Part shown: positions 10,373 to 31,531 of the stretch, one piece after another
Position numbering within the stretch: position 1 is the stretch's first letter
How the letters are laid out: each line of letters begins with the position of its first letter
Source of the DNA: Escherichia phage APECc02
Reading direction: 5' to 3' (one strand)
Sequence record: NC_041869.1
Length of the DNA: 64,000 bases
Program-made: the position numbers and the translations under genes
The notes under the pieces: generated by a model
The model's database searches: none
Told to the model about the DNA's origin: nothing
The model's input: only the letters and a program-made list of their open reading frames with translations

Positions 10373-10723
10373 ATGAAAGATGGGGATAAGCTGCTATATC
10401 TTAAAGTCCCCCTTGAAATACTGTCTATGTCAAAAGTTTTGAATGACACAACTGGGGAGGTTGTTGTTCTTGACTTGTATGACAAGATCGTATACTGCTA
10501 CCTGCACAACTGGTATAAGCTTGGAGGAAGTTCACGCTTCACACCCAGCACAAGGAAAATTGCAGCAGATGTTGGGATAAAGAAAACAAAAGCAGCAGCG
10601 TGCGTTAAAACTTTAGAATGTGCAGGAGTGGTTGAAATATCCACACAAGGGAGAGGTAAAAGATGCACATTTTCCAAAGTTTTGCCACCAGAAGAGGTTA
10701 TTCGAATGTCAACAACTGGTTAG
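10373..10723 (+). CDS. putative DNA-binding protein (helix-turn-helix-like)
   Basis: 116 aa; segment STRKIAADVGIKKTKAAACVKTLECAGVVEI looks like an HTH/winged helix; gene ends 75 bp upstream of the palindromic repeat array. Confidence 0.4.
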   Translation: MKDGDKLLYLKVPLEILSMSKVLNDTTGEVVVLDLYDKIVYCYLHNWYKLGGSSRFTPSTRKIAADVGIKKTKAAACVKTLECAGVVEISTQGRGKRCTFSKVLPPEEVIRMSTTG

Positions 10724-10798
10724 ACCAGTAAAAACTTAAATATCTGTACTATAAGGATTCGTATGTTTTATGTTCGCTCTGGAACAGAGGTTAGTAAC

Positions 10799-10879
10799 TG
10801 TCCGTGATACGGACACTACTGTCCGTCACGCGGACACATCTGCCCGTAATACGGACACTAACTGTCCGTGATACGGACA
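10799..10879. repeat. array of four 17-bp palindromes TGTCCG-N5-CGGACA at 21-22 bp spacing
   Basis: Copies at 10799, 10820, 10841 and 10863; copies 1 and 4 are identical (tgtccgtgatacggaca), copy 3 has one arm mismatch. Confidence 0.8.
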
Positions 10880-10921
10880 CATAAAGAATATAACTAAAAT
10901 AACTAAATAATAAAAAATAAA

Positions 10922-10981
10922 AGATCTAGTACTTATGGTACTAAGTACATATACTTAACTTATGTAGAATATACTAGATCC
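10922..10981. repeat. AT-rich region with nested inverted repeats
   Basis: agatctagta ... tactagatc flanking inverted repeat, plus internal palindromes agtacttatggtact and gtactaagtac; immediately downstream of the repeat array. Confidence 0.4.
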
Positions 10982-11383
10982 TAAGTACCATGTTTTAAAT
11001 TTATTACTTACTATGGGTAGTGTCGGCCCTTCATTGGCACTCGCCTACGAGGGGCGAGATGCCGGGCCTCCCTGGTGCACACAATAACAGAAGTGCATAC
11101 ATGCAGGTCTGTTAACATGTGTGGGAGCGAAGCGATAGCGCAGGCCAAAGGCCGAGCACTGATGTGGACCACCGACGAAAGCTTGCCAGCGCCGTAAGGA
11201 GTCGGTTGAGAGTCTCCCGCGCGAGCTTGGATGAAGTTTATGTGTGGAAACGGACAAGAAGGCCCCTAAATCGCTCCACAGCTATATAAACTATACCAGG
11301 TAAGGCAATCGCACCAGTTTGATAGAAAAGCTCGTTACAAAGCGATACAGTGAGTTTTTCTATAACTTGAAGAGGAGGTAGTT

Positions 11384-11962
11384 ATGAGTCCACGCAAAGA
11401 TGACCGTGAAAAGATTGCAAAACGTTATCAGAATGAAGAACAGATGGAGAAAACTTTCAAGTGGAAGCCAGGTTTCCAGCGTAATCATTCTAACGCTCGT
11501 GATCGTAAGCATCCGGATAAGTGGTTAACACCGCCAAATGATGGCATTCAGGTTGGTGATGAGAAGGAGCTGTCACCTGGAAAAGATGGCAACTACATTC
11601 GAACTAAGGAAGCAGGTCCAAAGGATGACAGCTATCTTGTAGATAAGGTTCTTGACGGTGTTGATGTAGGTGTTGACACTGTACGAAACCTTTTTCTTGG
11701 TTGGTATCGCACAGGGTTTTTCGACATCAAGGCTATTCGTCGTGTTTGTGATATTAAAAAGTCTGCCTACGATGATGATTCCCTACATCGCACTCTGAGA
11801 CAATACTCAGAGAGATACGGTCATCCAGTTATCACTCTTGACGATATTAACGAAGTTATGTATCATGTAGAGGTTGTTGCAGGTAGGTTCGGTGATGCAT
11901 ATCTCGGTATTCTCTCTGCAAAGGATGAGGTAATGTTAAATAAGATTTACTATGAACGCTGA
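11384..11962 (+). CDS. hypothetical protein
   Basis: 192-aa ORF with GAGGAGG RBS upstream; first gene after the noncoding block. Confidence 0.5.
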   Translation: MSPRKDDREKIAKRYQNEEQMEKTFKWKPGFQRNHSNARDRKHPDKWLTPPNDGIQVGDEKELSPGKDGNYIRTKEAGPKDDSYLVDKVLDGVDVGVDTVRNLFLGWYRTGFFDIKAIRRVCDIKKSAYDDDSLHRTLRQYSERYGHPVITLDDINEVMYHVEVVAGRFGDAYLGILSAKDEVMLNKIYYER

Positions 11963-11971
11963 GGGGCGATT

Positions 11972-12161
11972 AATGAACAATCCGGTAGCAAAGAACTGTA
12001 ATAAATTCAACAAGTCTGCGATTCACACTGACAGGAAAAAGAGTTGGTTTCCTGACATTGACGAGGAGCTTGAGAGTTACTTTGAAGATTTAGTCACCAA
12101 TGCAGAGGAGGTTGCGATTAAAGAATACGCAGACAGGAGGGATAAGGCCGGAATCTGTTGA
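11972..12161 (+). CDS. hypothetical small protein
   Basis: About 63 aa from the ATG at 11972 (GAGGGG RBS); ORF track starts 20 nt earlier. Confidence 0.35.
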
Positions 12162-12186
12162 CAAAAATAATGTTACCTGATAAGAT
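12158..12186 (+). promoter_or_regulatory. sigma70-like promoter (TTGACA-N17-TAAGAT)
   Basis: Perfect -35 hexamer, 17-nt spacer; upstream of ORF 12238-12480. Confidence 0.5.
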
Positions 12187-12237
12187 CTGCAATATGATGT
12201 GATACAATTTTAACTTACGAGGTCTACAGGTAATGCT

Positions 12238-12480
12238 ATGTTTAAGGTTAAGCTCGTTTTTCGTTCCATGAATGAGGATTATTTAGAAGATGAAGGTGAA
12301 TTTCGTGCACTGGATGATGCAATAGATTTTGCCAACGACTTAGCTTGTATGAATACGGGTTATGGGCTATGCTGTTGGGATGGTGGTGTTCAGATCGGTG
12401 ATAGCAAGATCTTCTACTTCTACCCTGAGCCCGATAACAAACAAATTAAGTATGTTTTATTTATTTGTGCTTTACAATGA
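12238..12480 (+). CDS. hypothetical protein
   Basis: 80-aa acidic ORF downstream of a consensus promoter. Confidence 0.5.
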   Translation: MFKVKLVFRSMNEDYLEDEGEFRALDDAIDFANDLACMNTGYGLCCWDGGVQIGDSKIFYFYPEPDNKQIKYVLFICALQ

Positions 12481-12767
12481 GGTTGTTTTCGTGTATCATG
12501 ATGAATATCCAATTTAAAGATGAATTTGATGGCTTTATCTCCGGATGCTTTGAAACAGGGTTCGGAGAAGGCTGAGTTACCCTTAGAGGGCTTGATAGTG
12601 CACCACACTTAAAATGGTAGGGGCAGCCAGCACATGACGATGTGACCCCAGCCAACCTGTAATAAGGTCGAGCCAAAGCGCGGTAATGGGCTCTGGTAAC
12701 CCACTTGTTGGGTCTTGCTGGTCCAGGACGCTGGACAAGTCGCAGGGAATACCACCCTGCGGCGAAC

Positions 12768-12796
12768 TTGACAATCAGTATTTGCTATGATAAAAT
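12768..12796 (+). promoter_or_regulatory. sigma70-like promoter (TTGACA-N17-TAAAAT)
   Basis: Perfect -35 and near-consensus -10 about 30 nt upstream of the ATG at 12826. Confidence 0.55.
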
Positions 12797-12825
12797 CCAC
12801 CTATCACGTGATAATGGAGGAAACA

Positions 12826-13163
12826 TGGCGGATACAACTAAAAAGCGTCGCCGTAGAGGCAGACCTCTGAAAGAGGAGTCCAACGCCATTCAGCTAGAGA
12901 AGAACATCCTTGATATGAAGGAATCTTTTATAGCGATGGTTCCAGAAGCTCACAAAGTTTTAAGAGAGCTGATGTTGGACCCGAAAACCAAACAAAATAT
13001 TCGTCAAAGCATTGCAGAGTATGTTCTTGATAAGGCAGACCGAATGCAGGAAGAATATGATGAGATGTTTGGTGAAGAGGAAGAGGTGGTAGTAGAAGAG
13101 GCTGAAAAACCAGCACCTTTTATGCCATTTACCACAGAAATACAGCCTGTTGGCAATAGTTAA
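12826..13163 (+). CDS. hypothetical protein with basic N-terminus and acidic C-terminus
   Basis: Start moved to the ATG at 12826 (GGAGG RBS); KKRRRRGRP N-terminus, EEEEVVVEE tail. The track's 12705 start would run through the promoter. Confidence 0.5.
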
Positions 13164-13172
13164 AATATTTTC

Positions 13173-13201
13173 TTGACAAACTTTGCTTAACAGTGTAATA
13201 T
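13173..13201 (+). promoter_or_regulatory. sigma70 promoter (TTGACA-N17-TAATAT) for the tRNA cluster
   Basis: Consensus hexamers about 60 nt upstream of the first tRNA. Confidence 0.6.
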
Positions 13202-13259
13202 TGTAAACATGGTCTCCCACCTTTTCTGGCGGCTAAGGTGTAAAAGAAAGCCACCCAGT

Positions 13260-13334
13260 GCCCTGTTAGCTTAGTGGATAAAGCAGCGGCCTTCTAAGCC
13301 GTTGACACTGGTTCGAGTCCAGTACGGGGTGCCA
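13260..13334 (+). tRNA. tRNA-Arg (anticodon TCT)
   Basis: Hand-folded cloverleaf: acceptor gccctgt/acggggt (two G-U pairs), D stem gctt/aagc, anticodon loop cttctaa, T arm actgg-ttcgagt-ccagt, encoded CCA. Confidence 0.75.
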
Positions 13335-13338
13335 AATT

Positions 13339-13425
13339 GGGGAGTTATCCCGTAGAGGTAGCGGTGTAGACTGTAAATCTATTGTCATTGCGACTCGGGT
13401 GGTTCGACTCCACCACTCCCCACCA
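13339..13425 (+). tRNA. tRNA-Tyr (anticodon GTA), long variable arm
   Basis: Acceptor ggggagt/actcccc, anticodon loop ctgtaaa, T arm ggtgg-ttcgact-ccacc, encoded CCA; 87 nt type II. Confidence 0.75.
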
Positions 13426-13539
13426 AATTTACATTTTTAAATGCATAAATCATACAGATAATGGCATTGATATTTATCGTCGTTTATACTAGTCACTAAC
13501 TGCTCGAAAATCAGTGTCATTATCAGTATTGTTTATAAA

Positions 13540-13630
13540 TGAGGGTAGGGAGCAATGGTGCTCAAGCGGTCTTGAAAACCGTCCCGTTGAGGATGACTCG
13601 ATGATGGTTCGATTCCATTACCCTCAGCCA
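13540..13630 (+). tRNA. tRNA-Ser (anticodon TGA), long variable arm
   Basis: Acceptor tgagggt/accctca, anticodon stem-loop gcggt-cttgaaa-accgt, T loop ttcgatt, encoded CCA; 91 nt. Confidence 0.7.
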
Positions 13631-13728
13631 TATTGTTGACCTTGTAATTAAGCGAAAGCCGGAAGCAGAACCGGATTATCAAATGTTACAGTCGTCATCG
13701 CCGACTAGCAACATGGTCAACATACTGA

Positions 13729-13825
13729 GCTAGGTAAGCCCTTTGGCAAGGGCGAGGATTTTTAATCCTGAAAATAGACGAGGTAGTCGTTGAATACATA
13801 GGTGGTTCGATTCCATCACCTAGCA
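13729..13825 (+). tRNA. tRNA-like gene, identity ambiguous (anticodon possibly TTT, Lys)
   Basis: Perfect acceptor gctaggt/acctagc, D stem gccc/gggc, T arm ggtgg-ttcgatt-ccatc, but about 30 nt between anticodon arm and T arm, no position-26 spacer, no encoded CCA. Confidence 0.4.
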
Positions 13826-13832
13826 CCTTTTT

Positions 13833-13908
13833 GCTGATGTAGCACAATTGGTAGTGCAATTGATTTGTAATCAATAGGTTGCAGGTTCGAGTCCTGCTAT
13901 CAGCACCA
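13833..13908 (+). tRNA. tRNA-Thr (anticodon TGT)
   Basis: Acceptor gctgatg/tatcagc, D stem gcac/gtgc, anticodon arm attga-tttgtaa-tcaat, T arm gcagg-ttcgagt-cctgc, CCA; 76 nt. Confidence 0.8.
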
Positions 13909-13909
13909 T

Positions 13910-13984
13910 GGCCCTGTAGCTGGAAGGTTCAAGCAAGCGACTCATAATCGCCAGACGGTGGTTCAATTCCACCCAGGGCCACCA
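13910..13984 (+). tRNA. tRNA with CAT anticodon (Met, or Ile2 read via lysidine)
   Basis: Acceptor ggccctg/cagggcc, anticodon loop ctcataa, T arm ggtgg-ttcaatt-ccacc, CCA. The anticodon arm gcgactcataatcgc resembles bacterial tRNA-Ile2 as I recall it. Confidence 0.7.
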
Positions 13985-13995
13985 AATAATAAATA

Positions 13996-14072
13996 CTCCG
14001 CGTAGCTCAGCTTGGTAGAGCGCCTGATTTGGGATCAGGAGGTCGAGTGTTCGAATCACTCCGTGGAGACCA
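13996..14072 (+). tRNA. tRNA-Pro (anticodon TGG)
   Basis: Acceptor ctccgcg/cgtggag with C1-G72, D arm gctc-agcttggta-gagc, anticodon arm cctga-tttggga-tcagg, T arm gagtg-ttcgaat-cactc, CCA. Confidence 0.8.
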
Positions 14073-23870: not shown

Positions 23871-24329
23871 ATGCTAAAGGTTAAATGTCAAACAAGGTTC
23901 AACCTAAAGCGCTTAGATCGCTTCTACAAAGACCTTGTGAGACTTGAAAGTAAAACAATAACCTACGGCTTTTATGACGAACCTCACCCGTCAGGCTTAA
24001 ATATGGCAACATTGGCAGCCATTCACAACTTCGGTTGGAACGGGCTGCCTGTTCGCAATTTCATGGAGACAGCCTTTGCATTTCATAGTGCTCAACTGCA
24101 GACTTTGACAGAAAAATTGTTGAGAGCTATGGCTAGAGGATCAAGTGCAGAGGCTATTCTTAAGCAGATGGGGGACACAGGGGCCAAAGCTATCCAGTTT
24201 GTTATTGAGGCTGGGCAGTTTAGTAATCCTACTGTTAGTGAGCAGTGGGCACAAGAAAAGGGCTTCAACGAGGCTATGCGGCATTACGATGTGCTGCTTG
24301 AATCTGCAACCTTTAAAATCGGACAGTAA
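23871..24329 (+). CDS. hypothetical protein (head-tail region)
   Basis: ATG at 23871 with GAGGGA RBS; about 152 aa. Confidence 0.45.
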   Translation: MLKVKCQTRFNLKRLDRFYKDLVRLESKTITYGFYDEPHPSGLNMATLAAIHNFGWNGLPVRNFMETAFAFHSAQLQTLTEKLLRAMARGSSAEAILKQMGDTGAKAIQFVIEAGQFSNPTVSEQWAQEKGFNEAMRHYDVLLESATFKIGQ

Positions 24330-30646: not shown

Positions 30647-31531
30647 ATGCCAAGCAATATAGTTGATGAAAAAGACCTGTACAAGCCTCAAGAGGTTAAA
30701 TCTCCAAAGGCTGAAAAGGCAGAGCAGCAAACTGAAAGCGATGTAAAGTACACTATGTTTGTCAGCGGTCTTAACTATGGCGGTCGCAATACGGGGATGA
30801 AGGGTAAAAACTTTACTAACGATCTTGCCATTATCTTCGATCAGGTTGAGAATTACTCTTTCAAACATTCTGTTGATAAGACTGGGTTTGCGGTGGAAGA
30901 TAAATCTACCCTGTCAGACCACGCCGTAATTAAAGATGGTGTATTTTCTTTTACTGGTAGGGTAAATACATCCCCACACATAATCTATGAGCAAAACTAC
31001 ATTGATAGGAATACTGACTCTAAAAACCCTGCAGCATCTATGCGACCAGGCGCTGCATTGGAGGCTTTGACTGAGATTATCAATAAGCGACAGTTGGTTT
31101 CTTTGGTTACCGAGGAGAGACTTCTTGAGAACTACATCATAACCAGTCTTTCTGCCAACAAGTCTGTTGGTGAAGGCGCTGCAATGGTGTTTGATGTAGA
31201 ACTTACAGAGTTCCGCACATTCTACTTGAATAAGGTTGTTAATGCAACTGTATACAGCAATCCTAAGAAAGTAGGCAAGACCCAACAAAAAGGCGCTGTC
31301 AACGACTGTAAGAATGGTAGTAACGTAGGTAACAAGAGGGACACAGGAGCATTCGCAGACACTGCATCCACAAACGCTGCAGAGGAGTGGCAGCCATACA
31401 AATCTATGATGTGGACAGATGAAAACGGTGTTACCCAATCGGCTGCGGATTGGTATTATCAGGAATATGGAAGACCTTCTACCATAGTCCCATCTGAGCA
31501 GGGAAACTACAACAAAGTTAACGGGAAATAA
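30647..31531 (+). CDS. hypothetical baseplate or distal tail protein
   Basis: ATG at 30647 with GGAGAGG RBS; first gene after the tape measure. Confidence 0.45.
   Translation: MPSNIVDEKDLYKPQEVKSPKAEKAEQQTESDVKYTMFVSGLNYGGRNTGMKGKNFTNDLAIIFDQVENYSFKHSVDKTGFAVEDKSTLSDHAVIKDGVFSFTGRVNTSPHIIYEQNYIDRNTDSKNPAASMRPGAALEALTEIINKRQLVSLVTEERLLENYIITSLSANKSVGEGAAMVFDVELTEFRTFYLNKVVNATVYSNPKKVGKTQQKGAVNDCKNGSNVGNKRDTGAFADTASTNAAEEWQPYKSMMWTDENGVTQSAADWYYQEYGRPSTIVPSEQGNYNKVNGK

Follow-up and report, generated by a model that had tools for sequence, protein, structure and literature searches.

The 64,000-nt stretch of the Escherichia phage APECc02 genome analysed here (NC_041869.1; the window) contains, at 11022–11375, an element that on comparative evidence is conserved, folded and non-protein-coding, and that is most likely an RNA of ~350 nt. 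An earlier note on this DNA had proposed a structured noncoding RNA in a GC-rich, ORF-poor island at 11020–11383, of a class that could not be told from sequence alone. Covariation of a 5′ hairpin (P1) and of a core helix, together with a substitution pattern of the non-coding kind, supported that reading, and the class is indeed not assignable from sequence: cmscan placed the island in no Rfam family. We regard the island as a candidate for a new RNA family, linked to a putative origin module and with a core defined clearly enough to test. Existing records carry either no annotation or small ORFs over these conserved 350 nt, in a group of phages (rV5-like) that are common therapeutic and biocontrol candidates. 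The core is shared with small plasmid-like elements of E. coli, and this satellite link makes the island more interesting than an ordinary orphan RNA motif.

Location, conservation and coding potential of the island

The GC content is 0.56 over 11000–11199 and 0.54 over 11100–11299, versus 0.345–0.44 in the flanks (0.345–0.375 directly upstream, 0.41–0.44 downstream), bearing out the compositional contrast described earlier. The island also lies where it had been placed, between a repeat array (10795–10880) and a 192-aa ORF starting at 11384. The surrounding interval (10700–11500) is 99.9% identical to Escherichia phage AlexBoehm, a Vequintavirus (rV5-like phages); AlexBoehm (Bas56) is in the BASEL collection and grows on E. 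coli K-12. The upstream local gene order comprises an RNA ligase gene on the minus strand and genes for a polynucleotide kinase-like ATPase and then a phosphoesterase, upstream of the gene for a 116-aa winged-helix protein (10373–10723, plus strand; homologue of rV5 ORF79), itself outside the folded element. This protein matched Pfam HTH_36 and DUF6945, both below the cut-off, and PHROG 12838, 'replication initiation protein' (E = 8.5e-80); records annotate it as either a transcriptional regulator or a replication initiation protein. The array consists of four repeats of 21–22 nt with internal palindromes (TGTCCGTGATACGGACA; spacing 21/21/22, family D1) and carries a repeat_region annotation in phage pangalan. 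The repeats are candidate binding sites for the winged-helix protein, either iterons or operators. Each of the four is a 17-bp palindrome, with 21-bp phasing. Because such palindromes would suit the operators of a dimeric repressor equally well, the label 'replication initiation protein' is insecure; that the repeats form an origin is suggested at the level of annotation. The AT-rich spacer with inverted repeats that follows (10881–11019) is a candidate DNA-unwinding or promoter region. A scan found no consensus sigma-70 promoter in this spacer, and a promoter/terminator scan at the island found neither a sigma-70 site nor a terminator.

Downstream of the island stands the ORF77 homologue (11384–11962, plus strand, 192 aa; PHROG 12226, function category 'unknown'), which served as the coding control, and further on are seven tRNA genes (13260–14072). 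At 13729–13827 there is a 99-nt tRNA-like gene to which ARAGORN assigned a 4-base anticodon (atcc) and Rfam a low score (35.5 bits); records annotate it as tRNA-Lys or tRNA-OTHER, and it may contain an insertion or an intron, or be frameshift-suppressor-like. A second GC-rich (0.50–0.53) unannotated block occupies 12570–12770, upstream of a consensus promoter (TTGACA-17-TAAAAT, ~12769–12797). It has ~65 invariant columns over six phages, including the diverged relative L003, no Rfam match, and hairpins with compensatory changes (e.g. GGUCCAGGACGCUGGACA to GGCUCAGGACGCUGAGCA); this block is probably another structured RNA.

When 50,697 phage records were searched by low-stringency blastn, matches to the island were confined to Vequintavirus, where it is full-length in all 117 records at 90–99.7% identity. 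With a covariance model of the core, a diverged copy was recovered from a Logan contig; the phage concerned shares ~71% identity with Vequintavirus in conserved genes. A degenerate pattern recovered three further contigs of this sister lineage (118–141 kb) in IMG/VR. The blocks common to the two phage lineages (UUGUGUGGGAG, UAAUGUGG, CGAAA...GCCGNNAGGAG and CGUUACARAGCG) are spread along the entire length, so the island is one unit. Its borders were examined against L003, a diverged IMG/VR relative. Identity starts abruptly at GTCGGCCC (11022) and reaches the start of ORF77, close to the borders first proposed; upstream of 11022 everything in L003 is unrelated, a different protein being encoded there, with the island kept. 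The bases directly 5′ of P1 are not conserved. Profile HMM and covariance model searches found no second copy of the core in the rest of the AlexBoehm genome, nor any in the syntenic loci of a Phapecoctavirus, a Seunavirus and a Klebsiella phage. Neither the core pattern nor the satellite capsid gave a hit when a single representative genome per species was scanned. An entry of 137,565 bp filed as an E. coli plasmid (CP057073.1) contains the island (99.7% identity); from this match and its size it seems to be the genome of an rV5-like phage, perhaps owing to a carrier state or a contaminated culture.

The absence of a convincing ORF, also claimed earlier, was borne out. The 70-aa antisense ORF is present (11045–11257, minus strand) and shows no gene-like behaviour; a 56-aa sense ORF (11119–11289, plus strand) corresponds to ORF78 of rV5, and AlexBoehm has two small CDSs annotated here. 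Neither small ORF carries a coding signal, and neither has a match in Pfam or PHROGs. In eight phage copies, substitutions in the ORF78 frame fell 24/26/26 on the three codon positions, versus 60/40/203 in the ORF77 control, and the ORF78 frame had 14 synonymous versus 48 non-synonymous codons where ORF77 had 181 versus 99. Across the island, substitutions were spread evenly over codon positions in every frame, and in the satellites the open stretches through the core vary in frame and extent. We conclude, on sequence grounds, that these substitution patterns exclude a protein-coding reading of the island. It is true that ORF78 is open in 9/9 phage copies and annotated in several records, that the AUG-UGG of a possible micro-ORF (conserved AUGUGG, 11162) is retained in nearly all lineages, and that in the sister lineage a strong Shine-Dalgarno sequence precedes it. 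However, ORF78 lacks third-position bias and its codon changes are mostly non-synonymous, the in-frame translations are unrelated across lineages (ESLPAP versus EKRSCR, lengths 11–41 aa), and the conserved nucleotides covary as base pairs. With database matches absent as well, it is very improbable that the island encodes one or more small proteins from ORF78 or the micro-ORF.

Fold of the element and its comparative support

The 5′ edge of the conserved block is formed by P1 (11025–11068, plus strand), a GC-rich hairpin of 16 bp with a 6-nt asymmetric internal loop (UUCAUU); the self-complementary stretch cgcc-tacgagg-ggcg pointed out in the earlier note is its top. All 16 pairs are maintained (100% of cells paired), and the MFE structure (−28.1 kcal/mol) accounts for 78% of the ensemble. 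The P1 of the satellite L005 has only two stem substitutions, both compensated (G-C to U-A). P1 is followed by a variable hairpin region (11072–11115, plus strand; 52–95% identity), from which 18 nt are deleted in rV5 and Pr121LW and which is replaced in L003.

The core domain (11118–11223, plus strand) is a multi-branch fold with small hairpins and a core hairpin. It is closed by pairing of UGUGUGGGAG (11118–11127) with CUCCCGCGCG (11214–11223), a 10-bp helix with three G.U pairs. These closing pairs are kept in 8/8 phage copies, save for isolated breaks in the two innermost predicted pairs; in L003 an insertion compensates, together with a C-to-U change. On the plus strand the MFE and centroid structures of the core domain are the same fold (−40.1), whereas the minus-strand ensemble is diffuse. 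The core hairpin (11171–11206, plus strand) has a 6-bp helix, 11171–11176 with 11201–11206, enclosing 24 nt (GAAAGCUUGCCAGCGCCGNAAGGA, 11177–11200) that are invariant in Vequintavirus and the type-A satellites. At 11194–11197 is a GNRA tetraloop, GUAA, GGAA or GGGA depending on the lineage. The helix itself exists in three versions: ACCGAC/GUCGGU in Vequintavirus, GCUGCC/GGCAGC in the satellites and GACGGC/GCCGUC in the sister phage lineage. Among these three lineages 100% of cells were paired and 4/6 pairs were compensatory, compared with 14–56% paired in controls in which the partner strand was slid. Covariation across the phage lineages and satellites, the check proposed earlier, thus supports both P1 and the core helix.

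The 3′ domain (11224–11320, plus strand) includes the shared blocks CCCCUAAAU and UAAGGCAA, present also in the satellites, and a second UGUGUGG (11241–11247), which could alternatively pair with CCGCGCG. The element ends in a 3′ hairpin (11322–11363, plus strand) whose 12–13 bp include G.U pairs and whose pairs and loop (CGUUACAAAGCGAU) are conserved; the ORF77 start codon follows ~20 nt further on. The folding energy of this hairpin is −12.3 kcal/mol (z = −2.63) on the plus strand and −7.3 on the minus strand. The sister lineage, in which ORF77 gives way to an HNH gene downstream, retains the loop block CGUUACARAGCG. P1 and the 3′ hairpin hold further G.U pairs, and A.C pairs are absent from the supported helices in the window sequence. 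G.U without A.C pairing identifies the plus strand, the sense strand of all flanking genes, as the one that folds. By folding energy the whole island stands out only moderately (z = −3.06 on the plus strand, −2.60 on the minus strand), and the core alone is no more stable than its shuffles (z = −0.53), so the case for structure rests on the comparative evidence. As the compensatory changes set apart few clades, they stand for a small number of independent events, some 6–8. RNAalifold misaligned the core over the two phage lineages and was used for conserved blocks only.

Comparison with known families gave no assignment. With Rfam 15, only tRNAs in the window reached the gathering score; the best hit over 10700–11500 was rli43 (23.9 bits; gathering score 100), which covers chiefly the AT-rich spacer, and the satellite copy returned nothing at E ≤ 1. 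A hammerhead ribozyme (CUGAUG...GAAA, 11158–11180) was considered and rejected: CUGAUG is not conserved, being CUAAUG or CCAAUG in relatives, and Rfam gave no match. The satellite sequence CCGGAAGGAGGCAGC resembles what we take to be domain IV of SRP (4.5S) RNA, but no SRP match was obtained even at E = 10, and the phage version, GUAAGGAGUCGG, differs. A presumed resemblance to CRISPR repeats (types I-E and I-F) rests on 5–7 nt only. A type III antitoxin or pseudo-ToxI mimic, for which tandem repeats of ~34–36 nt would be expected, was likewise rejected, such repeats being lacking; direct repeats inside the island are limited to one 13-mer, recurring at a spacing of 123 nt.

Satellite-like plasmids and the changing neighbours of the element

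A host origin of the island was rejected, since blastn against 5,426 complete E. coli genomes gave no chromosomal match and hit small plasmids only. The core was found in circular E. coli 'plasmids' of 13.2–13.7 kb, plus one trimer of 39.6 kb, and in metagenome contigs of similar size (~13.5 kb). The satellite members are L005 (NZ_CP020521.1), L006, L007, L009, L021–L023 and L026–L028; pE275a_13 (NZ_CP035869) is an example of a type-A plasmid. They encode a major capsid protein and a 706-aa tape measure, pieces of which are homologous to window genes, together with a Dit-like protein 54% identical to the product of window 30776–31333 and a 152-aa protein 48% identical to the product of window 23958–24299. 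Their rep-type protein, like the phage winged-helix protein, matches Pfam HTH_36 below the cut-off. Terminase and replisome genes are absent from the satellite annotations. The capsid family comprises 18 clusters, all from E. coli, on contigs of 13.4–14.3 kb. These 13.5-kb elements look like plasmid-persisting satellites of rV5-like phages, and literature searches found no description of satellite-like 13.5-kb elements. The analysis thereby brings out a plasmid-like E. coli family resembling satellites of lytic phages.

Each satellite has ~2.9 kb and ~1 kb of noncoding DNA. In L005 the element lies in a noncoding stretch of ~1.7 kb (12025–13689), part of the ~2.9 kb left unannotated across the record start. 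The satellite element stands directly after iterons and AT-rich DNA and is oriented toward the rep operon. Its 5′ part is modular, made of small hairpins and UGUGUGGG units in varying number, and satellite copies differ by deletions between the UGUGUGGG repeats. In the type-B satellites (L026–L028) the layout is kept and another hairpin, with no phage match, replaces the core; the core is therefore not indispensable to a satellite. The octamer TGTGTGGG occurs in 10–11 copies per satellite (L005, L007) versus 0.3 expected, oriented along local transcription, and in 8 copies in the window versus 2.5 expected. A separate polar DNA signal was considered for it and not adopted. Inside the element its copies supply the 5′ side of helices whose other strand is CCCACA or CCCGCGCG; the number of modules varies through deletions between its copies, and many of the phage occurrences look incidental.

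In every context, that is, in the window, L003, the satellites and the sister lineage, the element follows a repeat array and AT-rich DNA. The repeats themselves vary: the window and L003 each have their own version, the satellites have at least five iteron types and the sister lineage has two, and the repeat-binding protein also differs between contexts (L003 has other repeats and another protein). The downstream neighbour changes too. ORF77 follows in Vequintavirus only; in the sister lineage a promoter-like site and then an HNH endonuclease gene follow, and in the satellites consensus promoters, then small ORFs and rep. Since repeats and binding protein are swapped and the downstream gene varies, the element belongs to the origin/control module and not to any particular gene. 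A leader of ORF77 was rejected because an ORF77 homologue (51%) has no island upstream (the AlphaFold model of ORF77 was unusable, pLDDT 45.6), and a gene-specific 5′ leader or riboswitch because a constant downstream gene was not found.

A more general cis-acting leader (attenuator, protein-binding switch or processive antitermination RNA) would govern transcription or translation of any gene that follows, through two mutually exclusive pairings of CCCGCGCG, and several features are consistent with one. CUCCCGCGCG can pair either with UGUGUGGGAG upstream (11118–11127) or with UGUGUGG downstream (11241–11247); in the satellites L021 and L023, UGUGUGGG comes immediately after CCCGCGC, and in L006 an inserted module precedes UGUGCGGG. 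The element also heads rightward operons in phage and satellites. However, the downstream genes differ between lineages, and in the satellites and the sister lineage promoter-like consensus sites intervene between the element and the next gene. In addition, the 3′ hairpin leaves the ORF77 ribosome-binding site uncovered with no terminator after it, and L003 does not preserve the pairing predicted between the P1 loop and the Shine-Dalgarno sequence of ORF77. On this evidence a leader function is unlikely.

Possible roles of the element

Our proposal, which we hold tentatively, is that a factor shared by helper and satellite recognises a single modular plus-strand element at 11022–11375, tied to the origin/control module. 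An RNA of ~350 nt would be produced as early transcription proceeds rightward out of the repeat/AT-rich control region, either within that transcript or beside it. It would consist of a 5′ clamp hairpin (P1), the variable hairpin, the core domain, and a 3′ domain ending in the conserved hairpin, and the invariant, GNRA-capped 24-nt surface of the core would be read by the common factor. The most plausible candidate for this factor would be the phage replication machinery, for example a phage-encoded primase-helicase or another part of the replisome; the phage does encode its own primase/helicase. The element might then help to start or prime replication at the adjoining origin as an origin transcript, a primer or a loading site, and satellites would have copied it so as to be replicated in helper-infected cells. 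Recruitment of the replisome or priming is the role that we prefer, with a shade more reserve than the proposal as a whole. Recognition by a shared replisome would explain why the element persists through exchanges of initiator/iteron modules, why it stands beside the origin of satellites that have no replisome genes, and why the core type differs between satellite types. If this holds, the core is a possible handle for locating or engineering the phage replication origin.

Known origin primer and activator RNAs offer a partial parallel. As with ColE1 RNA II, the T4 R-loop origins and lambda oop RNA, a structured element lies beside AT-rich, origin-like DNA; it points away from the AT-rich part and is several hundred nt long with multiple hairpins. 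It differs in having no sequence or Rfam similarity to these RNAs, and the neighbouring region is iteron-type with its own winged-helix protein. Inspection short of a systematic search showed no antisense partner, RNase H site or G-rich/C-rich hybrid segment. Iteron replicons such as pSC101, P1, F and RK2 generally need no RNA, which counts against an origin-RNA role.

It is possible, though doubtful, that the element works as a molecular key. A phage factor specific to the lineage, replisome or regulator, would read the core, and through the copy that a satellite has next to its own origin, helper infection would turn on the satellite's replication or expression. The alternative core hairpin of type-B satellites would in that case mark a different helper specificity. 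Should the shared core prove to be the contact between helper and satellite, it would provide a tractable example of helper recognition at the nucleic-acid level.

The element could instead fold as single-stranded DNA, as an ssi signal or a loading site for a primosome or primase on the plus strand. That strand would be the lagging-strand template of a fork moving rightward from the AT-rich region, and the satellites would have copied the site. Strand-specific, covarying hairpins near a putative origin, on the strand that would be the lagging-strand template, recall the ssi and primosome sites of the G4 type, RSF1010 ssiA/ssiB and ColE1 pas, and the geometry is like that of the ssi sites downstream of the ColE1, pAMbeta1 and RSF1010 origins. 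If a primase specific to the replicon read the site, its presence in both helper and satellite would be accounted for, and the phage primase/helicase would be available as the recogniser. The position and orientation beside repeats and AT-rich DNA are the same in each context; with DNA folding parameters the island gave z = −2.80, and it has many small hairpins with 3-nt loops and the heptamer GCGAAGC (11129–11135), an unusually stable DNA mini-hairpin. However, the supported helices are rich in G.U pairs, a common feature of RNA that carries a cost in DNA, and conserved blocks run through ~350 nt, far more than the ~40–140 nt of known ssi signals. The second covarying GC-rich island, 1.2 kb downstream, has no adjoining repeat array, which suggests that the region simply encodes RNAs. 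Folding as single-stranded DNA thus appears unlikely.

Still less likely is a free, trans-acting stable RNA, such as a decoy for an RNA-binding protein of host or phage or an anti-defence RNA, which would lie near the origin only because early transcription starts there. Sharp borders of the conserved block, the 5′ clamp hairpin and the invariant exposed surface, including a Shine-Dalgarno-like AAGGAG, would suit such an RNA, as would the RNA-rich neighbourhood (the candidate RNA at 12570–12770 and the seven tRNA genes). The related phage PhiTE reportedly has an RNA mimicking the ToxI antitoxin (PMC3475682), which we count in its favour. However, tandem repeats of the ToxI type are absent, and strict linkage to repeats and AT-rich DNA across swapped modules would be left unexplained. 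A search of the phage genome for antisense targets of the invariant stretch found few 11-mers, about the level expected by chance. Among phage-borne RNAs of unknown function, GOLLD, ROOL and T4 species 1/2 are comparable in being GC-rich relative to the genome and near a tRNA cluster. The island is smaller, and no Rfam model, in a library that presumably includes GOLLD and ROOL, matched it even at E = 10. To our knowledge, sharing with satellites has not been described for RNAs of this type.

To return to the tentatively favoured element read by a common factor, its occurrence in both helper and satellite also invites comparison with packaging signals. The P4/P2 cos and PICI pac/cos sites likewise place helper noncoding sequence in a small element with homologues of helper structural genes. 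A pac recognition site, copied by the satellites for packaging, would be in line with reports that Vequintaviruses are circularly permuted, headful packagers (PMC8407724, PMC13211470), and with the lack of an annotated terminase in the satellites, for which a helper-like signal would be needed. However, a fold that is strand-specific, with G.U pairing, and lies beside a replication module would be unexpected for a duplex terminase site; the core is missing from type-B satellites, and other pieces shared between satellites and phage, in a 2.5-kb gap of AlexBoehm, are equally good candidates. A pac site here is therefore extremely improbable. The satellites also differ from P4 and the PICIs in being plasmid-like and in encoding their own capsid, tape-measure and Dit-like proteins. 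The AlexBoehm gap (90469–92994; 41070–43595 in L016) is unannotated, lies outside the window where two gene arms converge, and contains repeated CTCTTCAGG motifs and chains of small hairpins. It shares pieces of 24–51 nt with the noncoding DNA of the satellites, and is a possible second cis site, e.g. pac.
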